A DNA stretch of 64,000 nt from an uncultured Ignavibacteriaceae bacterium (GCA_964515875.1 CAZEWJ010000001.1:88740-152739); one strand, 5' to 3'. Shown: positions 26,029 to 36,353, counted from the stretch's first letter. Numbers and translations are program-made. Notes: generated from the letters alone by a model not told the origin.

Positions 26029-26259
26029 ATGGAAGTAGGATATGTGACATCTAAGGGGCAGTTGGTTATACCATCTAAAATGAGAAGAAGATATGGGATA
26101 AAACCGGGCACACGAGTTAATTTTTTTGAAGAAGATGACGGAATTAAAATAATTCCGGTTACTTCAGAAATAATCGAGGCAAATAAAGGATTTATGAAAA
26201 CAGGAGGGAAATTGTTGAAAGCCTTAATGGATGAGAAAAAGAAAGAGCGAGAGCTATGA
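26029..26259 (+). CDS. AbrB/SpoVT-family antitoxin (VapB-like)
   Basis: KGQLVIPSKMRRRYGIKPGTRV swapped-hairpin motif. AAGGAGA Shine-Dalgarno. 4-nt overlap with the PIN gene. Confidence 0.75.
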   Translation: MEVGYVTSKGQLVIPSKMRRRYGIKPGTRVNFFEEDDGIKIIPVTSEIIEANKGFMKTGGKLLKALMDEKKKEREL

Positions 26260-26654
26260 AGAAATATGTATTAGATAGCTACGCACTCCTGGCTTATGCT
26301 GAAAATGAAAAGGGAGCTGACACCGTAGAAGATTTACTTAAAAAGACACTTAATGATCAGGCTGAACTATTTCTCTGTGTAATTAACTGGGGGGAAATGT
26401 ATTACATAGCATTGCGTGAGGGTGGAAAGGATAGAGCAGAGCTATATAAAAATACTTTTGCCCGCTATCCGATAACTATTGTTGAAGCAAATAAAGAACT
26501 TACTCTGCAAGCAGCCCAGTACAAAGCATTTCATAAAATTTCTTATGCAGATGCCTTTGCGGCTGCTCTGGCAAAAATGAAAAAGGCCTTGCTTGTTACC
26601 GGAGACAAAGAGTTTAAAGCTTTGGAATCTGAGGTTAAAATTAGTTGGATTTAA
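26256..26654 (+). CDS. PIN-domain ribonuclease toxin (VapC-like)
   Basis: N-terminal YVLDSYALLAY (Asp), central WGEMYY region and C-terminal YADAFAAALA...LVTGDKEF acidic residues, as is typical of PIN domains. Confidence 0.8.
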   Translation: MKKYVLDSYALLAYAENEKGADTVEDLLKKTLNDQAELFLCVINWGEMYYIALREGGKDRAELYKNTFARYPITIVEANKELTLQAAQYKAFHKISYADAFAAALAKMKKALLVTGDKEFKALESEVKISWI

Positions 26655-26660
26655 AGTTCT

Positions 26661-28892
26661 ATGATATCAACTGATCAGAAAACAGAAATTATTGAATTAA
26701 TTAGAAGCACATACTTTTTTATTGGCAAAGAATCTGGAACCCAACTCAATGAAAATTCTTTATTCGGTAAAATCCCAGTAAATAGGTGTAAATGGCCAGT
26801 AAGATTTGTTCACGCTTTAACAACTTGCAAACAAATTGTATTCCTAAAAGATTTATTGAATACAGATTATGAAGAATTTTTTAAACTGAGTAATTGTGGA
26901 AAGAAAACTATTCATGATGCAAGGCAAACGGTTATTTTTTTTGTGAATAACAATTTTAATGTACTTTTAGATGATAGAAGCGCTGGTGGGGTAGTTTTAG
27001 AGGTGCCGGAATCAAAGGAAAAAGAAATTGTAACAGAAGAGAAATTTCATGGGTCAATTCAGAATAGTGAAGTAAACTCAACATTTAATTTTGTAACAGC
27101 CATTGAGGATTTATTTTCAGAGATTAATAAAAGAGACTTAGAAATTGCATTACAAAGATGGAGTTATGGAAAATTAATTCATTATGCGGAGATTGGGAAA
27201 AAATATAATATAACAAGAGAAAGAGTCAGACAAATTTTATATCAGATAATAAAAAATCTTAAGACTAAATACAGATATTATCTTAATGAGTGGGGACAAT
27301 TGCTTTTGGATAGACTGGTTCAGCAACCAAAACCAATAAATAAAGATATTCTTACAGAGTATAATCTTAAATATTCACCATATCTTTATTTAGGTTTATT
27401 TTCAGAAGTATTTGAAGAGGTTCCGTTCGATAAGTTTATGCCTAAAAGTTTTGAGCAGTTAAATAAACGTAAAATTATTTCTAATCCAAAGTGGGCAAAA
27501 ATAGTAGAAACATTAAATAACATTCCTCCCATGCTTGGACAAATAACACCCTCAAATATAGTCTCTATACTCTCATCAAAAGGATTTAGTCTTTCAGATC
27601 AATTGTTATGTTTTAAAATTATTTTGGGATTAAAAAAGTATTTCTTCTTCGAAGAAGGGACCAATTATTTTTTATTGCGTAGAGGAGGTATTAGAGATAT
27701 TTCTTATACAATTCTTAATAGTAGTGAAATACCCTTGAGTATTGATGAAATTTTAAGTGAAATGCGTAAGTATTACTATGATGGACCAAAATATGACTCA
27801 TTAGGTTCAGTTATTGGCAATATAAAACAGGATGAAAAAATAATACAATTTGATCGGTACAAATTTGGGATTGAGAGACATTTTTCATATTCCAGAGACG
27901 AATGGTTATTAATTTGTTCAATTGCTAAGATATTTTTGTCGGAAATAAAACGACAAAGTTATATTACTGAAATATTAGAAAAAGTATGTACAGACTTTCC
28001 TCTAATAAAATCGAAATATGAGCTGGTATATATTTTAAGAACTGATCCAGAAATAAAGGACCTTGGATTTTTCAATTTCACTCTCACTTCTTTCAATCAA
28101 GAAGAAAGAATAAAAGTAACTGAACTAATAAAAGAAATATTTAATAAAGAACCCAGCATTAAACATTTTCACGAAATAAGCGAGAAATTAAAAGAAAACA
28201 GATATATAAGAGATGAAGGGATTGGAACTTTATTAAGTAATCAAGATTTTCTTGAAAAATATCCTGGTGGATTTTATGGGCTTAAGGAACTTGCTGCCTA
28301 CAACCGAATAGCACTCTCAAAGAGAGAGAAATTTATTTGTTACTTAGTAAGCCAATATTTTTTCCCTAATACGGAAGTAAATAGGGTTCTAAACTATTTT
28401 GATTCGGAAGAGTTAAAACAGAATGCTTCTGACGTAATATATTCTTCAAACACATTATATATATATTCTTCTGATATGAATATTGATATAATATTAAATA
28501 ATAATTGGAGTGTAATTAAAAAGGTTAAATGTTTATTGTTCAATATTGATGAACCAATTTTCGAAGAGCAGTTAAATTGGATGTTAAAGGACTTGGGAAT
28601 AACCGCAGAAAAAAATGACTTTTACAAGATTAGAAATGAAACAACAATTAATTATTCTAATCACAAATATTCTTTTATAAAAACAGAACTTCCTCCCATA
28701 GAGTTAATAACAGTGCTAGATGATTGTTACAATTTTATAAATGATTCAGCTAGCTCTTTTAACTTAAATGAAATGTATGAACTAGTAAAAAATTACGTTT
28801 ATGATGAAATTAATTTTTCTCAATTCATGGTGGCGGTTAAGGAAGACGAAAGGTTTATAGTTACTGATAATAATCTAGTGCTTATTAAATGA
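26661..28892 (+). CDS. Multi-HTH protein: RNAP alpha-CTD-like HhH + sigma-70 region-4 HTH + three or more winged-helix (HARE-HTH-like) repeats
   Basis: aa 46-91 PVRFVHALTTCKQIVFLKDLLNTDYEEFFKLSNCGKKTIHDARQTV compares with the E. coli alpha-CTD. aa 157-201 ...HYAEIGKKYNITRERVRQILYQIIKNLK compares with RpoD 4.2 ([26 protein letters not shown]). There are repeats of about 60 aa downstream. Starts 6 nt after the vapC stop. Confidence 0.7.
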   Translation: MISTDQKTEIIELIRSTYFFIGKESGTQLNENSLFGKIPVNRCKWPVRFVHALTTCKQIVFLKDLLNTDYEEFFKLSNCGKKTIHDARQTVIFFVNNNFNVLLDDRSAGGVVLEVPESKEKEIVTEEKFHGSIQNSEVNSTFNFVTAIEDLFSEINKRDLEIALQRWSYGKLIHYAEIGKKYNITRERVRQILYQIIKNLKTKYRYYLNEWGQLLLDRLVQQPKPINKDILTEYNLKYSPYLYLGLFSEVFEEVPFDKFMPKSFEQLNKRKIISNPKWAKIVETLNNIPPMLGQITPSNIVSILSSKGFSLSDQLLCFKIILGLKKYFFFEEGTNYFLLRRGGIRDISYTILNSSEIPLSIDEILSEMRKYYYDGPKYDSLGSVIGNIKQDEKIIQFDRYKFGIERHFSYSRDEWLLICSIAKIFLSEIKRQSYITEILEKVCTDFPLIKSKYELVYILRTDPEIKDLGFFNFTLTSFNQEERIKVTELIKEIFNKEPSIKHFHEISEKLKENRYIRDEGIGTLLSNQDFLEKYPGGFYGLKELAAYNRIALSKREKFICYLVSQYFFPNTEVNRVLNYFDSEELKQNASDVIYSSNTLYIYSSDMNIDIILNNNWSVIKKVKCLLFNIDEPIFEEQLNWMLKDLGITAEKNDFYKIRNETTINYSNHKYSFIKTELPPIELITVLDDCYNFINDSASSFNLNEMYELVKNYVYDEINFSQFMVAVKEDERFIVTDNNLVLIK

Positions 28893-29476
28893 ACAAAAAA
28901 TTATCAAAGAAAGAAAAAACATTACTTACACTTTATAAAATTTCAAGTGGTAGAAAAAAAACTGTTCATTATGAGGATTTGTTAGTTGAAACATTTCTTT
29001 CTTATAAAAATGATTTTCAATTAAAACTATATCCTAAATATCCCGATTCTGATGTATTTAGATATATTATCTATTTCCAATTAAAGCCTGCTGGCTTAAT
29101 AAGAATAGCAAACAAACAATGTATTCTAACTGATTTAGGAATCAAATTTTCAAAAGAGTTATTAGGTGAGGGAAGAGATAATTATAATGCAGATAGATTA
29201 TTAATTAATCAAGAAATAGAGAGATTAATTAATTTGCAAGGTTTTTTAATGTTCAAAGAAAAAAAACAAGAAAAAATTATAGATCAGGACTTTTTTGATT
29301 TTTTTAAATCAAGTGTGCGTACAAAACCATTAGAATTACTTGGAAATATCAGCCAAATAGAAAGCGAAATTGATGGGTATTCAAAAATGAATAAAAGACT
29401 TTCAAATTTGTTATACGAATATTCGATCTTTTTGAAGAAAAAATTTTTCCATTTATATGAAGGAATAAAAAAATGA
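28889..29476 (+). CDS. Small protein (195 aa) with a putative N-terminal winged helix; unknown function
   Basis: 4-nt overlaps with both neighbours. aa 8-92 look like a wHTH (KEKTLLTLYKIS...VHYEDLLVETF...KPAGLIRIANKQCILTDLG). The rest is helical. Confidence 0.5.
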   Translation: MNKKLSKKEKTLLTLYKISSGRKKTVHYEDLLVETFLSYKNDFQLKLYPKYPDSDVFRYIIYFQLKPAGLIRIANKQCILTDLGIKFSKELLGEGRDNYNADRLLINQEIERLINLQGFLMFKEKKQEKIIDQDFFDFFKSSVRTKPLELLGNISQIESEIDGYSKMNKRLSNLLYEYSIFLKKKFFHLYEGIKK

Positions 29477-31233
29477 GAGTAATAGCTGAGAAACCATACA
29501 TTCATGAAAATGTTTTGGATCTCTTTGGAAAGGAATTTAAGTTTGACCATGCTAAGGGTATTGCAGAATTATTAAAGAATTCAGTTGATGCATACACTTT
29601 AGAAGATATTTCGGACGAAGAACAACAAATTTTCGTCTTGTTTTCTTTACAAAAGGAAAATATTAAGTCAATTGCTGTATTAGATTTTGTAGGGATGACA
29701 AGAAAAAAGATAGATGAAGCATACAAAAGATGGTTTGATCCTTCTGCTTCAAAGATTGATGCTGAAGCAATTAAAAGAGAAAAACAAACATTGGGTGGAC
29801 ATGGAAATGGTGGCAAATTTTATTTACGTGAAATGTTTAAATACTCAAAGATTGTTACTTACAGGAATGGTAAACTTAATGTTTTTGGGTTTGATATAGA
29901 TAAGCAATATGGAATTTACCATGGTTATAATGATATTCAATCTAATATAGATGAAGCTGTAATATCATCAGGTTTAGAGAAATATCCCCATATTTTTAAT
30001 CATATTAAAGAAATTATCATTAAGAAGAAAAAATTTAGTATGGTAATTGGAGAAGAACCAAAATCTGTTCATGGAACAAATAATATTAAAATATTATTTG
30101 ATAAGTTGACTTCACATCCTCAAGCTCGAAGAATTATCCAAAGGAAAAAAGTTTACTATTCAACAAACTATCTTTCAAATCCAATTCAGCTTACAGTACC
30201 AAAATTAACTCCTAAAAAAAACTTTGAAAAACCTTTCTATTTTGTTTGCCCACAAAAGTTGGTTTATGGTGATGAAATTATAATGTATAAAGACCCTTCA
30301 GAACAAATAACATTGATTTTGCATACATCTGAAGAACCATTGAAGGGTTTCAAGTATAAAGGTCTCAACAGTATTGATTTTCTTGGGGAAGTTGGTGTTT
30401 TAGCCAACTATGAGATTCATGAGCTTGGGGATTATTTTAAATCTTTTTTATATAGTGATTTTGTATATGGGGAGTGTTTCTGCCCAATTATGCAAGAAGA
30501 AGATTATGTTCGGAATGATAGAAGCAAATTTTCAGATGGACCAAAGAAAGAAGTATTATTAGAATGGATTCGTAGCTGTATTGAGGATGTTTGTAATAAA
30601 ATGGAAGAACAAGTGAAAAAAGAACACAAACATCTTAACCTTAAGCAAACATCTGAACTTAATAAGTTACTTAATAAGTGGAAAAACAGATTTTTACAAA
30701 AACTCTTAAAAGAAAGATTGGGAGGTGTGGGCAATTTTGGTGTTGATGGTTCTAAAGAAGTAGGATGGAGTGCTTCTGGTAAAGGAACATCTAAAAATAG
30801 AAATGAGAAGAAGGTCGGAGATAGAGGTGGAACAGAAAAGAAAAGAGGGAGTACTTTCCCTGAAGTTTTAATCTCTGGAATAGACAGTGATCCGGAAACT
30901 GGTGAAATTGTTGAATGCGACCCAAGACATAACGCTACATATCAAAGACCCATAGATGTAAAAAGGGGAATTTATTGGATTAATACTTCAAAAAAATTTG
31001 CCCAACAAATATTAGAAAAATTTGGGCCTGACTCTGTTAGATGGCGTGAATATTTATTCCAAAGATATGTGGATATAATAGTAAAAGAATATCTGATAGA
31101 TATTGGGAAAGTTGAGGTCAATCTTACTAGTGATTTCGTTACTAATGAAATTGAAAAGAAGATATCTGAAATTCTGGATAGTGCTGTAGAAGATTTAGAG
31201 AGATTTTTATTTCAAGAGGAATATAATTTGTAA
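29473..31233 (+). CDS. GHKL (Bergerat-fold, MORC/Hsp90-like) ATPase with an unknown C-terminal region
   Basis: N-box AELLKNSVDA (E32, N36, D39). G1-like VLDFVGM. G2-like LGGHGNGGKFY. Gly/Lys-rich linker at aa 416-460. Confidence 0.65.
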   Translation: MRVIAEKPYIHENVLDLFGKEFKFDHAKGIAELLKNSVDAYTLEDISDEEQQIFVLFSLQKENIKSIAVLDFVGMTRKKIDEAYKRWFDPSASKIDAEAIKREKQTLGGHGNGGKFYLREMFKYSKIVTYRNGKLNVFGFDIDKQYGIYHGYNDIQSNIDEAVISSGLEKYPHIFNHIKEIIIKKKKFSMVIGEEPKSVHGTNNIKILFDKLTSHPQARRIIQRKKVYYSTNYLSNPIQLTVPKLTPKKNFEKPFYFVCPQKLVYGDEIIMYKDPSEQITLILHTSEEPLKGFKYKGLNSIDFLGEVGVLANYEIHELGDYFKSFLYSDFVYGECFCPIMQEEDYVRNDRSKFSDGPKKEVLLEWIRSCIEDVCNKMEEQVKKEHKHLNLKQTSELNKLLNKWKNRFLQKLLKERLGGVGNFGVDGSKEVGWSASGKGTSKNRNEKKVGDRGGTEKKRGSTFPEVLISGIDSDPETGEIVECDPRHNATYQRPIDVKRGIYWINTSKKFAQQILEKFGPDSVRWREYLFQRYVDIIVKEYLIDIGKVEVNLTSDFVTNEIEKKISEILDSAVEDLERFLFQEEYNL

Positions 31234-31254: not shown

Positions 31255-32058
31255 CTATTCTTGTTCCTTCACTTTTCCCGAAACAATCTTTTCAACCATT
31301 CCAGGTCTGATCAAATTCAACCATAATAATATTTTTAATTTTTTGGGGATAACAAGTTCTCTTTTTCTGTTTACCATTCCATTAAGAATTTTTCTGCTGC
31401 ATTCCTGAAGACTTATGGATTCTTTGCTATGTTCTTTTTTAGATTCACCGATCTTTTTCCCATTTTTATCGAAAGCATTTTTTCTTAAATCGGTTCCTCT
31501 AAGCCAATGAGGTTTAACCAGCAAAACATCTACGCCTTTATCTTTTATTTCAATTCTTAAAGTGTTCAAAAATCCGGTTAATCCATGTTTGGAAGCAACG
31601 TATCCTGAATGATAAGGAACTGCAATTTCTCCCTGGATAGATGAGATTGCGGTTATCAAACCTTTACTTTTTTTTAAATAAGGGAGAAAAAGGTGCGTTA
31701 GACGAACTGCACTCAGGTAATTTGTTTCAATTAATTTTTGAAACAAAGATAGATCAGTAACTTCTTCAAACTTTGCCCACATACTTATTCCGGCATTAAG
31801 AACTAAGTGATTAATTGAACTAAAATTATTTATTGTTGTTTCAACTAATCTTTTACAATCTTCCGGTTTAGTTACATCTCCCTGAACGGCAATTGCTTTA
31901 GCCCCTTTTTCATTGCAGGATACTACAACTTCATTCAGTTTATCAATGTTCCGGGAAAAGAGAATTAAATTCGGTTTAAAAGATGCAAGTTCATTTGCAA
32001 GAGCAGCACCAAGTCCTGAAGAAGCCCCTGTAATAACAATATTCTTATTTAAAAACAT
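31255..32058 (-). CDS. Short-chain dehydrogenase/reductase (candidate acyl/alkyl-DHAP reductase)
   Basis: ITGASSGLGAALA cofactor motif and catalytic YVASK. Last gene of a four-gene operon. Confidence 0.8.
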   Translation of the reverse strand: MFLNKNIVITGASSGLGAALANELASFKPNLILFSRNIDKLNEVVVSCNEKGAKAIAVQGDVTKPEDCKRLVETTINNFSSINHLVLNAGISMWAKFEEVTDLSLFQKLIETNYLSAVRLTHLFLPYLKKSKGLITAISSIQGEIAVPYHSGYVASKHGLTGFLNTLRIEIKDKGVDVLLVKPHWLRGTDLRKNAFDKNGKKIGESKKEHSKESISLQECSRKILNGMVNRKRELVIPKKLKILLWLNLIRPGMVEKIVSGKVKEQE

Positions 32059-33790
32059 TTTCTAAATCTTTTTTCTGTAAGCCCCAGTCAAATGGTTTAT
32101 CAATCGGCGGAATAATCTTATCAGGATTCATAATATTATTTGGATCCAGAGAATGCTTCAATCCTCTAACCGCTTTTATTCCGGTTTCAGAAATATCATC
32201 TTTAATCCAGGGCATATGTTCAAACCCAACTGCGTGATGGTGTGATAAAGTAGCTCCTCCTTTTATAAAAGCATCTTCAGCCGCTTTCTTGATTGAGAGA
32301 TATTGTTCAAGCTCGTATCCAGAAACTTGCTGGCAGCCAAAAGTAAAATAAAGACTCGCACCAGTATGATACGTATGGCTTATATGACATCCTAAAAATC
32401 CTGTTTTTACTGTTTTCTTAATTGACTTTTCAATCGCTTCCACAGTGGAATAATACAGTGGAAGAAGATTACTCCATACTGTTGAAGTTTCACTAACATC
32501 AGCCATTATATTTCTATCCATAACATAATCGCGAAGGTAAGGGAAATCATATTTCCCTTTTTCAAAAGCTTTGCCTGGTTCAGTGCCAAGATTAAAAGCA
32601 CCATGCTTTTTATAAATTTTATTCACTTTTCTTTTCATATCAGAAAAATTTTCTTTATCTCCTTCAAATACAGTAAGCAAAAGGCAAACTTTATCAAAAT
32701 CAAACTTCTTAATATTCCTTAAATAAGATTTAACAACTTTGCCAAGTAAAGATTTTAATGATGATGACGATTTTGATCTGTAAGCAAAAGATAAAGCTGT
32801 TTTACCAGGATCATTCAATCTTGTAACAACCGGGGCACAATATTTTTCAACACATTCATAAACAGCATTAACTCCGCTTTCAAAGTCGGGGAAAAGATAT
32901 CCATAAGGTACTCTGTATTGAGGAAGTTTATGCACGCGCATTACAGCTTCTGTAATTACTCCAAGCGTTCCTTCACTTCCGATACAAATATGGTTAACAT
33001 CAATTCCGTTAGAAGATTTAGGTACAGTGCGTGTAACTATTGTGCCGTTTGGTGTAACCATTCGGAGAGAGAGAACCATATCTTCAATCTTTCCATATTT
33101 ATCACTCTGCATTCCCGCTGATCTTGTAGCAATCCAACCACCAATAGTTGAATACTCAAATGAATCCGGAAAATGACCAAGTGTAACTCCATACGAATTA
33201 AGCTGCTTTTCCATTAAAGGGCCTAAAGCACCGGCTTGTATTCTTGCTGTATTTGATTGTTTATCAACGCTGATAACTTTATCCATCAGCTTCATATCAA
33301 GAGAAACTATCATTCTTCCGCTGCCGTTATTTGCTTCAAGGCATCCGGCAATATTTGAACCTGCACCGAAAGGGATAACAACTACATCAAAATCTAAAGC
33401 AGCTTTTATTATGTTTGAAATTTCATCTTCAGATAAAGGATAAATAACACAATCTATAGATGCATTAATAATACCGTTTCTTATTCTCCAAAGATCTCTG
33501 AAACTTTTTCCGTAAGAATGAATTACTCTCTCTTTCTTATCAAATTTAAATCTATCAGGATCAATAAAAGATTTTATATGATTAAGGAATTTATCATTTA
33601 ATGTTTGCTGAGGAAGTTCTATTTCTTCAAATTTGAATGGAGGAGTTAATTTAACTTCGCCTTCAATTCCCACAACATTTTTAATATAGGGCCAAAGCTC
33701 AGGTTTATCATCCATATTGAACCCGATATTTTCGCCTCCCCATCCCCACCATTTCATTTGCTCTACGCTAAGCATTCCTCTCACCATCAT
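32045..33790 (-). CDS. FAD-linked oxidase, alkyl-dihydroxyacetonephosphate synthase (AGPS)-like
   Basis: N-terminal MKWWGWGG motif, which I recall as typical of AGPS homologues. FAD-binding PCMH-type domain (VIPFGAGSNIAG). 581 aa. Confidence 0.7.
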   Translation of the reverse strand: MMVRGMLSVEQMKWWGWGGENIGFNMDDKPELWPYIKNVVGIEGEVKLTPPFKFEEIELPQQTLNDKFLNHIKSFIDPDRFKFDKKERVIHSYGKSFRDLWRIRNGIINASIDCVIYPLSEDEISNIIKAALDFDVVVIPFGAGSNIAGCLEANNGSGRMIVSLDMKLMDKVISVDKQSNTARIQAGALGPLMEKQLNSYGVTLGHFPDSFEYSTIGGWIATRSAGMQSDKYGKIEDMVLSLRMVTPNGTIVTRTVPKSSNGIDVNHICIGSEGTLGVITEAVMRVHKLPQYRVPYGYLFPDFESGVNAVYECVEKYCAPVVTRLNDPGKTALSFAYRSKSSSSLKSLLGKVVKSYLRNIKKFDFDKVCLLLTVFEGDKENFSDMKRKVNKIYKKHGAFNLGTEPGKAFEKGKYDFPYLRDYVMDRNIMADVSETSTVWSNLLPLYYSTVEAIEKSIKKTVKTGFLGCHISHTYHTGASLYFTFGCQQVSGYELEQYLSIKKAAEDAFIKGGATLSHHHAVGFEHMPWIKDDISETGIKAVRGLKHSLDPNNIMNPDKIIPPIDKPFDWGLQKKDLENVFK

Positions 33791-34517
33791 TCTTTAATTC
33801 ATGAACTCTTTTCTCAAGCTCTTCAGTTATTTTTTTGTAAGCCTGAAAGTTATTCCCTTCAGAGTCATCATTACAAACATATTCGCTTGGTAAAATAGGC
33901 TTGCCAATCCTTATTGTAATTCTTGAAGGCCTCATAAAAATTTTTTCTTTTGGCCAGGCGTTAAATGATCCTGTAATACAAGCAGGGACTATTTGCAAAC
34001 CAAGTTCAGCGGAAATCATTGCCAGTCCTTTTTTGAAAGGATAAATCTTTCCGGTTAATGACCGGGTTCCTTCAGGATAAATTATGAGGCTGCGGTTTCC
34101 TGCTCTTGTAAATTCTCTGCAGGCTGCAAGATAATTGATCATGGATTTCCTGTCAGCTTCCCTGTCAATAGGTATTAAGTTCATCAGCAGGTTAAGGTAA
34201 TATTTTCTTTTATCGTTATCAAAAAAATAATCTTTAGCTGCCATCATTGCAAAGTTTTTAAAAGGCAATCCTGATGCAACCATTAAAATCCCGCTGTCCA
34301 TATGGCTGTTATGATTGCTGCAAAAAATAAACGAAGAAGATTTTGGAATATTTTCTCTGCCAATTATTTTTAATGGACAATAAACTGTAAAAAGGATTTT
34401 ACAATAGATTTCAAAAATTTTTTTTATTGATTTACCAAGAAGATCGGGTTTTTTCAAAACATGAGAATACTCAGGAGGAACTATTGCACTCTCCAGTTCA
34501 GAACGAATTGAAATCAC
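33768..34517 (-). CDS. PlsC-type (lyso)phospholipid/DHAP acyltransferase
   Basis: HX4D motif NHNSHMDSG and IYPEGTRS motif. Confidence 0.8.
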   Translation of the reverse strand: MISIRSELESAIVPPEYSHVLKKPDLLGKSIKKIFEIYCKILFTVYCPLKIIGRENIPKSSSFIFCSNHNSHMDSGILMVASGLPFKNFAMMAAKDYFFDNDKRKYYLNLLMNLIPIDREADRKSMINYLAACREFTRAGNRSLIIYPEGTRSLTGKIYPFKKGLAMISAELGLQIVPACITGSFNAWPKEKIFMRPSRITIRIGKPILPSEYVCNDDSEGNNFQAYKKITEELEKRVHELKNDGERNA

Positions 34518-35687
34518 TCATTTTCTCCCATACTTGGCATGTGAAAAAGCAAATTCATCAGAAACAATAGCACCACCAAGAGATAATTCAAGTGCGAGAG
34601 CACAGGCGCATACAATCTCGGCAAGCTTCTTTGAAGAATCTTTGCCGGTACATCCTAAAAGCTCAAGATTTTTTCTTGCCTGTTTTAATCTTGTACCACC
34701 GCCAACCGTACCAACTGTTATTGAAGGCATTGTAATAGTTGCATAGAGATCATCAGAATTTCTTATTTCGTACGAGATACTTCCTCCTGCATTCTCAACA
34801 ACACTTGCAACATCCTGACCTGTTGCCATATAAATTGCGGTAAGAGCATTTGCTACATGCATATTCATTCCGAATATACCTGCTTCCTGCGAACCTCTGG
34901 TACATTGTATCCAGCCGTCAACATATTCTTTTGCAGTAACTCTTAGCAGTCGCCTTAGAAACCTTCCTTCAATAAGAGCACTTCCTACAACATAATGACT
35001 GCGCCCAAGAAGCAACGATTTATAAGCAGGATTTTTATCTCCATTAAAGTTGCTCTCAATATAATATCTGAAACCAGAATCGCATTTATAGTTCTCATTA
35101 ATAAACCTGCAGGCTTTGTGTGTAGCTATTGTAACCATATTTTGTCCGGAAGCTTCGCAAGTGTTATAAACAAAATCCAGAATAACACTGTTCTGAGAGG
35201 GGTATTTATCAATTCTTAAAAGTTTGCCGTAATTTGTAGTGGATTCTGCTTCTCTTTTAATCACTTCAAAATGTTCATCAATCCAGGAAGTAAACGGTTT
35301 GCTCTTATCAATATCTTTAAAAATAAATATTGGAGATCTTGATAATTCCTGTTTTATATGATTTGTTTTAATGCCTCCGGAAAGATGTGTAAGAAATAAA
35401 CCTCTCGTCATAGACATTGTTAAAGTCCCTTCGAGAGTGCAAAGAGGAATGTAGTATTCTCCTTTAGCATATGTACCACTGATTAATAATGGTCCGGCTA
35501 TAGCCAAAGGAAGATGCATAAAACCAACATGATTTTCGATTATTCCCCTGAAATCTTCCGGGTTATCAGGACCAGCTTCATTAAGGTGAAAACCGGTTTT
35601 CTTTTCCAGCCACTCCTTTCTTTTTTCAGTATCTTCTTTTTTATATCCGCGTGGCGGCAGAATTTCGCTCATTAGTGTCTTCTCCAA
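34518..35687 (-). CDS. HMG-CoA reductase family protein (soluble, 389 aa)
   Basis: IENHVGFMHLPLAIAGPL, CTLEGTLTMS, GDKNPA, TVGTVGGGT and C-terminal SHAKYGR, corresponding to HMGR catalytic-region motifs. Confidence 0.75.
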   Translation of the reverse strand: MEKTLMSEILPPRGYKKEDTEKRKEWLEKKTGFHLNEAGPDNPEDFRGIIENHVGFMHLPLAIAGPLLISGTYAKGEYYIPLCTLEGTLTMSMTRGLFLTHLSGGIKTNHIKQELSRSPIFIFKDIDKSKPFTSWIDEHFEVIKREAESTTNYGKLLRIDKYPSQNSVILDFVYNTCEASGQNMVTIATHKACRFINENYKCDSGFRYYIESNFNGDKNPAYKSLLLGRSHYVVGSALIEGRFLRRLLRVTAKEYVDGWIQCTRGSQEAGIFGMNMHVANALTAIYMATGQDVASVVENAGGSISYEIRNSDDLYATITMPSITVGTVGGGTRLKQARKNLELLGCTGKDSSKKLAEIVCACALALELSLGGAIVSDEFAFSHAKYGRK

Positions 35688-36107
35688 ACCTTTATTTCAA
35701 GTACTAAGCAATATTATTGAACCACTTTTAATTTAATAAGAAAATAGAATAAGTAATACCCTTTTGCTTCTTTAAAATAAAGCCTCTCCTAATAAAGTGC
35801 ATTAAAATTTTTTTAAAGTTTTTGAACCTCCTTTAAGAAATTTTTATCCTTTAAAAACTCCGGATAAAGAAACTATTCTTTGATCAGAGATTGTTTAAGT
35901 TGAAGTAAATAGCAGGGTAAATTTTACGCCCTTCTATAGAAAAATATTTCGTAAATGATTAACAGCAAACCCCTCTCTATCAATTATTCATTGACCCAAA
36001 TGTATAAATCATAACAATATGATACAGATATAATTGTAATAAAATTAAGCTTTTACGTAAATAGAAAATAAGAGCAGTGGCATAATTCATGTCTTTCACC
36101 TAACAGA

Positions 36108-36353
36108 ATGAAAAAAGAATTAAAAGAGTTAAACAAAAAAGAGACTTATATGTACGTCGGACAAAAAATGGAAGAAGTTCGTCAGTTGATAAAAAAAGTT
36201 ATTGAACTTGAATATAAGAATGCCCTTAACAAAGGATTATTAGATTCACGTTCCGTATCCAATAAAATCTGGAACCTTCTGATTGATAAGGATGCCTTGC
36301 ATATACCGGCACCAGAAGGAGCTTCAGGATGTTATGAGAATACTGAAGACTAA
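36108..36353 (+). CDS. Hypothetical protein (81 aa)
   Basis: ORF only. No motif recognised. Confidence 0.3.
   Translation: MKKELKELNKKETYMYVGQKMEEVRQLIKKVIELEYKNALNKGLLDSRSVSNKIWNLLIDKDALHIPAPEGASGCYENTED

Follow-up and report, generated by a model that had tools for sequence, protein, structure and literature searches.

A putative ether-lipid operon built around an alkyl-DHAP synthase and led by an FcrA-type member of the HMG-CoA reductase family in an uncultured Ignavibacteriaceae bacterium

The 64,000-nucleotide stretch of DNA analyzed here (the window; GCA_964515875.1 CAZEWJ010000001.1:88740-152739) comes from an uncultured Ignavibacteriaceae bacterium and carries on its minus strand, between positions 31255 and 35687, four tightly packed genes that probably form one operon for the synthesis of ether lipids. 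The open reading frame (ORF) listing gives exactly the four genes that an initial annotation of the sequence had placed here, with the same coordinates and junctions: the first two genes abut (34517/34518), and the following junctions are overlaps of 23 nt (33768-33790) and 14 nt (32045-32058). The features are:

34518-35687, minus strand: fcrA-like gene of the 3-hydroxy-3-methylglutaryl-CoA (HMG-CoA) reductase family; 389 amino acids from a TTG start (ORF listing; PF00368, 338 bits).
33768-34517, minus strand: gene for a PlsC-type acyltransferase of the LPLAT superfamily; 249 amino acids, GTG start (PF01553, 81 bits).
32045-33790, minus strand: gene for alkyl-dihydroxyacetone phosphate (alkyl-DHAP) synthase (AGPS, EC 2.5.1.26), as judged by orthology; 581 amino acids, ATG start (FAD_binding_4 and FAD-oxidase_C).
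31255-32058, minus strand: gene for a classical short-chain dehydrogenase/reductase (SDR); 267 amino acids, ATG start (adh_short, 155 bits).
35688-36107, minus strand: AT-rich intergenic region of 420 nt upstream of the operon; presumed promoter and leader.

Pfam places the four proteins in the families to which they had initially been assigned (HMG-CoA_red, Acyltransferase PF01553, FAD_binding_4 with FAD-oxidase_C, and adh_short), and the 11 sequence motifs listed at that time were all found, once each, in the proteins named.

The initial annotation had further proposed that the chemistry of HMG-CoA reductase (HMGR) was recruited in the first protein for the reduction of an acyl-CoA. This idea, arrived at independently, is correct in kind, but it had already been published: according to Grossi et al. 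(ISME J 2025; PMC11948995), class-I HMGR homologs named FcrA were shown experimentally to be fatty acyl-CoA reductases, the assayed enzyme being inactive on HMG-CoA and resistant to simvastatin, and most bacterial 'class-I HMGRs' are FcrA. The signature described in that paper consists of Ser684→Glu, a bulky residue in place of Leu862 and the loss of a Lys that binds HMG; this Lys is printed as Lys795, and its spacing from the catalytic Lys indicates that Lys735 is meant. When the window's protein is aligned with 150 cluster representatives and the solved HMGR of M. thermolithotrophicus (6hr7), the catalytic residues Glu559, Lys691, Asp767 and His866 (human numbering) are all retained, and the HMG-binding sites are altered (Ser684→Glu, Lys692→Asn, Lys735→Gln and Leu862→Phe), with S684, K692 and K735 being the ligands of the HMG carboxylate. 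The protein thereby shows the residues that mark FcrA, namely Glu at 684, a residue other than Lys at 735 and a bulky Phe at 862. At these four sites, two genuine archaeal HMGRs recovered in the same search (P0245 and P0269) read S, K, K and L; these two score 468 and 510 bits against the NCBIfam equivalog TIGR00533, for which the window's protein stays below the cut-off (277.1 versus 441.8 bits).

The position of the protein in a maximum-likelihood tree of 89 sequences (LG+C20 PMSF), built without the assayed Pb-FcrA, the N. pharaonis sequences and bacterial true class-I HMGRs, points in the same direction. Six bona fide archaeal HMGRs form one branch with 100/100 support, and the window's protein lies apart from them within a clade of 19 sequences (100/100), hereafter the cassette clade, that is also separate from the main FcrA clade (100/99). 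Its identity to proteins of that main clade is approximately 38-41%. About half of the main-clade proteins possess an N-terminal extension of approximately 130 amino acids, which presumably corresponds to the Lad domain described by Grossi et al. and is found in none of the cassette-clade proteins. Moreover, the cassette subclade has DKN after the catalytic Lys where FcrA reads DKK. Other members of the FcrA family are fused to acyl-CoA ligase or acyl carrier protein (ACP) domains, which provides family-level support for fatty acyl-CoA substrates. We infer that the protein is of the FcrA type and predict it to be an NADPH-dependent fatty acyl-CoA reductase that yields a fatty alcohol.

A diversity of domain fusions is seen among the FcrA-like representatives in general (P0146, P0154, P0157, P0168, P0218, P0127, P0235, P0129 and P0130). 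In one type, of approximately 800-1450 amino acids, the partner is a C-terminal APH/EcKL/choline-kinase-like phosphotransferase domain; in others it is a PilZ domain, a thioesterase-like domain or an N-terminal acyl-CoA ligase, which may be accompanied by a carrier domain. It is possible that the phosphotransferase domain acts as a fatty alcohol kinase; such kinase fusions are not mentioned in the accessible part of PMC11948995.

The source genome (4.39 Mb in 123 contigs, approximately 33% G+C, completeness score of 100%) was also searched for the two routes to isoprenoids, as the initial annotation had suggested. Neither mevalonate kinase (best match 34 bits versus a cut-off of 163) nor HMG-CoA synthase (best match 32 bits versus a cut-off of 360) was found in it, and diphosphomevalonate decarboxylase gave zero matches in this genome scored as 100% complete. 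Two markers of the methylerythritol phosphate (MEP) pathway, Dxr (502 bits) and IspH (215 bits), are present. Since both markers are encoded and the mevalonate genes were not found, isoprenoids are made by the MEP route, and the complete mevalonate pathway that would have spoken for a conventional HMGR was not recovered from a genome scored as complete. Together with the TIGR00533 score, this bears out the view that the protein is not a mevalonate enzyme. A canonical fatty acyl-CoA reductase (FAR) was likewise not found in the genome, the best match to PF07993 (NAD_binding_4) reaching 54 bits in epimerase-sized ORFs. Zero genome matches were also obtained for WS/DGAT (PF03007) and for PEDS1/CarF (PF10520), but both absences are weakly supported because the same searches were silent in every control genome. 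Five genes of the acyl-CoA-synthetase family could supply the acyl-CoA substrate.

The protein encoded by the third gene of the operon scores 467 bits (E=9.6e-139) against the solved AGPS of Dictyostelium (2uuu) and 313 bits (E=3e-92) against that of guinea pig (4bby), whereas the next family, which comprises D-lactate dehydrogenase and glycolate oxidase, is reached only at approximately 1e-25. Alignment to 4bby shows that Arg419, Tyr578 and the His615-His617 loop (guinea-pig numbering) are conserved and that Thr568 is replaced by Ser; Arg419, Tyr578 and the His615-617 loop are the catalytic residues of the guinea-pig enzyme. The N-terminal MKWWGWG is invariant across the cassette AGPSs. By orthology, the FAD oxidase is thus a true AGPS, as initially proposed, and not a glycolate/lactate oxidase (E=1e-138 to 2uuu versus 1e-25 to D-lactate dehydrogenase).

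The roles of the two remaining proteins are less readily assigned. In the acyltransferase, the motifs HNSHMD (HX4D) and YPEGTRS are both invariant in 55 homologs; among solved structures, T. maritima PlsC (5kym, 74 bits) is the closest match, the best NCBIfam match is the AGP acyltransferase domain, and a paralog that is 29% identical lies on contig C32. Being a single domain of 249 amino acids, the protein shows neither the long architecture of GNPAT nor the fusion to a FAR (FARAT). The SDR has the classical motifs TGASSGLG and YVASK and matches NF004825 with 280 bits; against the PDB it finds generic SDRs at 1e-25 or weaker. Searches of protein clusters with the SDR and the acyltransferase gave no functional lead, recovering only generic clusters of these two families in the same phyla, and a predicted complex of AGPS and the acyltransferase scored 0.00 without controls, which carries no weight either way. 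From family and gene position, the acyltransferase is a candidate DHAP acyltransferase that would make 1-acyl-DHAP, and the SDR, from its family and its linkage to AGPS, a candidate acyl/alkyl-DHAP reductase that would give 1-O-alkyl-sn-glycerol-3-phosphate. The initial annotation had matched three pathway steps by family; for AGPS this match is now strengthened by strong orthology, and for the acyltransferase and the SDR it stays at the level of family and position.

The arrangement of the four genes is not fortuitous: relatives belonging to many phyla share this gene order. A scan with one genome per species found relatives in at least 596 species, of which 80 loci were kept; among these, 8 loci encode proteins at least 54% identical to the window's protein, and the next are at most 42% identical. 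When 15 loci of the query clade were examined, the acyltransferase gene followed the reductase gene in all but one (14/15), AGPS followed in each of the 14 loci with enough flanking sequence, which represent at least seven phyla, and an SDR gene followed AGPS in nine of the 11 related loci with enough flank. None of the 72 loci among these 80 whose FcrA-like genes are at most 42% identical has an AGPS or an acyltransferase gene within 7 kb. The labeled cassette loci belong to Ignavibacteria, Neomarinimicrobiota (Marinimicrobia; Fidelibacterota), Planctomycetes UBA1146, Gemmatimonadales, Verrucomicrobiales, Ca. Porifericomitaceae and Halothiobacillaceae, and unlabeled ones come from one 9.2-Mb genome and from several metagenome contigs, with the FcrA identity falling as low as 44%. 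In the window's own phylum only seven of 401 sampled genomes have an AGPS match, as does one of the eight other genomes of the family. This patchy presence, together with an identity across phyla of 55-73%, points to horizontal spread and to an accessory module rather than a lineage trait.

The Verrucomicrobiales version of the cassette has two additional genes. A second acyltransferase of 218 amino acids (L007:11425-12081) is encoded directly after the SDR, and a gene for an MMPL-family transporter (L007:4589-6898) lies directly upstream. These extra genes possibly provide sn-2 acylation and lipid export steps.

With a probability of roughly 0.8, the four genes form one operon by which 1-O-alkyl glycerolipids are made along the alkyl-DHAP (AGPS-type) route, independently of oxygen. 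In this route the FcrA-type reductase would use NADPH and the Glu/Lys/Asp/His set of class-I HMGRs to reduce a long-chain acyl-CoA, in a four-electron step, to the fatty alcohol; family and residue signature are seen in the protein, and the activity is extrapolated from that measured for the FcrA of Ca. Promineifilum breve. The PlsC-type acyltransferase would convert DHAP to 1-acyl-DHAP, a step assigned from gene position only, and AGPS, as its orthology and conserved catalytic residues suggest, would exchange the acyl group for the fatty alcohol and so create the ether bond of 1-O-alkyl-DHAP. The SDR would then reduce the C2 ketone to give 1-O-alkyl-sn-glycerol-3-phosphate (from position and family), which housekeeping PlsC and head-group enzymes would turn into ether phospholipids, the PlsC paralog on C32 being a candidate for the later sn-2 acylation. 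As PEDS1/CarF was not found, saturated alkyl (plasmanyl) lipids rather than plasmalogens would be expected.

Several points weigh against this proposal. The acyltransferase is a small PlsC-like protein and not a GNPAT homolog, and its specificity for DHAP cannot be read from the sequence. Two related cassettes, L015 and L017, have no SDR. The FcrA whose activity was assayed, that of Ca. Promineifilum breve, is from another subclade, from whose members the window's protein is as distant as indicated above, and the DKN motif and the Gln at the K735 site mean that the substrate of the cassette subclade could differ. Finally, the searches for PF10520 and PF03007 were positive in no control genome.

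Other explanations for the gene set have to be considered. It is possible, though unlikely, that the pathway is as proposed and that the PlsC-type enzyme instead serves as the sn-2 acyltransferase for 1-alkyl-glycerol-3-phosphate (the AGPAT role), with 1-acyl-DHAP coming from an unlinked acyltransferase. Its nearest solved relative, T. maritima PlsC, is indeed a 1-acyl-glycerol-3-phosphate acyltransferase, its best NCBIfam match is the AGP acyltransferase domain, and the second acyltransferase after the SDR in Verrucomicrobial cassettes indicates that two acyltransferase roles can be encoded separately. However, the gene lies between fcrA and AGPS in 14 of the 15 loci and encodes the only dedicated candidate for providing the acyl-DHAP that AGPS uses, no other candidate DHAP acyltransferase was identified, and the paralog on C32 is already available for sn-2 acylation, all of which favors the DHAP acyltransferase role.

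The substrate of the reductase is a second point on which one could differ. That the cassette subclade stands apart from the main FcrA clade, with Asn replacing K692 and Gln or another residue replacing K735, would accommodate the reduction of a CoA thioester other than a plain long-chain acyl-CoA, such as a hydroxy-, branched or dicarboxylic one; the product would then be a specialized or signaling ether lipid rather than a bulk membrane lipid. Nevertheless, the Glu and Phe that the protein has in common with FcrA point to a hydrophobic, unbranched chain, and the active-site residues of the accompanying AGPS are conserved. AGPS enzymes accept ordinary long-chain fatty alcohols as their substrates. 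An accessory function would suit the patchy occurrence of AGPS (7/401 genomes of the phylum and 1/8 other genomes of the family), and the ether lipids of Myxococcus are developmental signals (PMC13012113); on balance, we regard a divergent substrate as quite improbable. It is even harder to believe that the first gene encodes a genuine HMGR of isoprenoid metabolism that merely adjoins lipid genes. The annotation of its homologs as 'hydroxymethylglutaryl-CoA reductase (NADPH)', the Pfam match to HMG-CoA_red and an identity of about 40% to an archaeal HMGR would fit such a role, but they are outweighed by the subthreshold equivalog score, the replacement of S684, K692 and K735 and the Phe at L862, the separation from HMGRs at 100/100 support, the MEP pathway in a genome in which mevalonate kinase, HMG-CoA synthase and the decarboxylase were not found, and the linkage to AGPS in 14/14 loci with enough flank. 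If the FcrA reading is right, the public label of these homologs is a systematic annotation error, which it corrects.

The proposed ether-lipid route combines features of several known systems. With FcrA, as presented in PMC11948995, the first protein shares the HMG-CoA_red fold, the retained Glu/Lys/Asp/His, Ser684→Glu, the bulky residue at 862, the loss of Lys735 and a host genome in which no mevalonate pathway was detected; it differs in its separate subclade, in the lack of the N-terminal Lad extension and in DKN for DKK. The authors suggest that certain FcrA may contribute to the synthesis of ether lipids alongside AGPS or PlsC-like genes, pointing to a PlsC-like neighbor of fcrA in Coxiella and, in Ca. 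Promineifilum breve, to an AGPS that lies nine genes away from fcrA (PMC11948995). In the cassette, unlike in these published cases with a distant AGPS or only a PlsC-like neighbor, fcrA is in an operon with AGPS. Set beside the FcrA system, WS/DGAT was not found in the window's genome, with the control searches silent. The succession of alcohol supply, acyl-DHAP formation, AGPS exchange and ketone reduction is that of Myxococcus xanthus MXAN_1676-1675-1674 and of the eukaryotic peroxisomal FAR/GNPAT/AGPS/PexRAP pathway, with which the AGPS is orthologous. However, in the window an HMGR-type reductase replaces the Rossmann-type FAR (NAD_binding_4), a stand-alone PlsC-like protein of 249 amino acids replaces GNPAT or the FAR-GNPAT fusion (FARAT), a dedicated SDR is encoded inside the operon, and PEDS1/CarF was not found in the genome, again with silent controls. 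The myxobacterial ElbD pathway (elbB-elbE; Lorenzen et al. 2014, cited in PMC11948995) likewise joins an acyl-reducing module to a PlsC-like acyltransferase to produce alkyl glycerol ethers, but ElbD is one large FadD-ACP-reductase-acyltransferase protein that acts independently of AGPS, whereas the window has four discrete enzymes around AGPS.

Apart from the hints in PMC11948995, we found no description of the four-gene operon in the literature. A survey of prokaryotes used eukaryotic FAR, GNPAT, AGPS and PEDS1 as queries (PMC13012113), and one of sponge symbionts used agps as a stand-alone gene (bioRxiv 10.64898/2026.06.23.733905); neither text refers to HMG or FcrA. While the idea of the FcrA enzyme is already published, the compact operon and its dedicated FcrA subclade appear to be new, and we regard the tightly linked, widely transferred four-gene cassette as a modestly novel finding. 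It is a compact gene set that can be tested by heterologous expression, and an HMGR-like gene adjoining AGPS offers a simple genomic marker with which to predict ether-lipid producers in uncultured phyla. We know of no stand-alone gene that has been assigned as a bacterial DHAP acyltransferase or alkyl-DHAP reductase, and the operon offers candidates for both.

The AGPS slot of the cassette is filled by either of two lineages, that of the window (32045-33790) and that of the Marinimicrobia cassettes L011 (L011:9143-10741) and L122 (L122:8920-10686) and of L094 (L094:1379-3169), whose AGPSs are approximately 30-34% identical to the window's; this occupation of one slot by two lineages argues for functional coupling. 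The L011 enzyme, approximately 32% identical to that of the window, scores 473 bits to the guinea-pig and 307 bits to the Dictyostelium AGPS, whereas the window's AGPS and most other cassette AGPSs score higher to Dictyostelium than to the animal enzyme. A third bacterial AGPS type gave 340 and 266 bits, and in the phylum of genome G401, 29 of 201 genomes have AGPS-like genes, which are 31-40% identical to the window's AGPS. The cassette lineages are the closest relatives seen here of amoebozoan and animal AGPS, respectively. Because the two score highest to different eukaryotic enzymes, eukaryotic AGPSs may not form one clade with respect to their bacterial counterparts. If true, eukaryotes and cassette-type bacteria would have exchanged AGPS repeatedly, instead of there having been a single myxobacterial transfer; a 2026 PNAS paper found the phylogenetic signal of AGPS insufficient.

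Sediments, soils, sponges and the ocean commonly contain non-isoprenoid alkyl glycerol ethers, yet few bacterial producers of these lipids, or genes for them, are known. It is tempting, if speculative, to propose that the cassette is a self-sufficient, horizontally mobile ether-lipid module behind much of the output of such ethers by uncultured bacteria (Ignavibacteria, Marinimicrobia, Verrucomicrobia, Planctomycetes, Gemmatimonadota and sponge symbionts), a scenario to which, together with the repeated exchange of AGPS, we give a low probability.

With regard to the source, the closest homologs of the HMGR-like protein are labeled Ignavibacteriaceae or Ignavibacteriales, and the sequencing runs that contain the stretch are of permafrost metagenome DNA, probably its source, with no RNA run listed among them. 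A second HMGR-family match in the genome, on contig C12, was considered as a paralog and rejected: C12 (1458-98526) duplicates part of C1 (32469-129537) over 97 kb at 99.94% identity, so the apparent second copy of the operon is due to assembly redundancy and not to gene duplication. This redundancy probably also accounts for the contamination score of 7.4%.

The fcrA-like gene probably starts at the ATG at 35672 (384 amino acids) rather than at the TTG at 35687, because a GGAG (35685-35682) lies 9 nt ahead of this ATG and nearly all close homologs are 384 amino acids long. A scan for promoters and terminators returned only generic sigma-70-like matches at chance frequency, and none is claimed. 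Downstream, a convergent plus-strand gene for a GHKL ATPase ends at 31233; upstream, the 420-nt spacer is followed by a divergent plus-strand gene at 36108, in a region with small, TPR and M23-peptidase genes. Since the flanking genes are unrelated to the four genes, these form a self-contained unit. The GHKL ATPase gene belongs to a separate block of five genes (26029-31233), which includes VapBC, a sigma-r4/wHTH protein and a small protein; its Pfam matches to Sigma70_r4 and HATPase_c_3 are weak, and the block is unrelated to the lipid operon.

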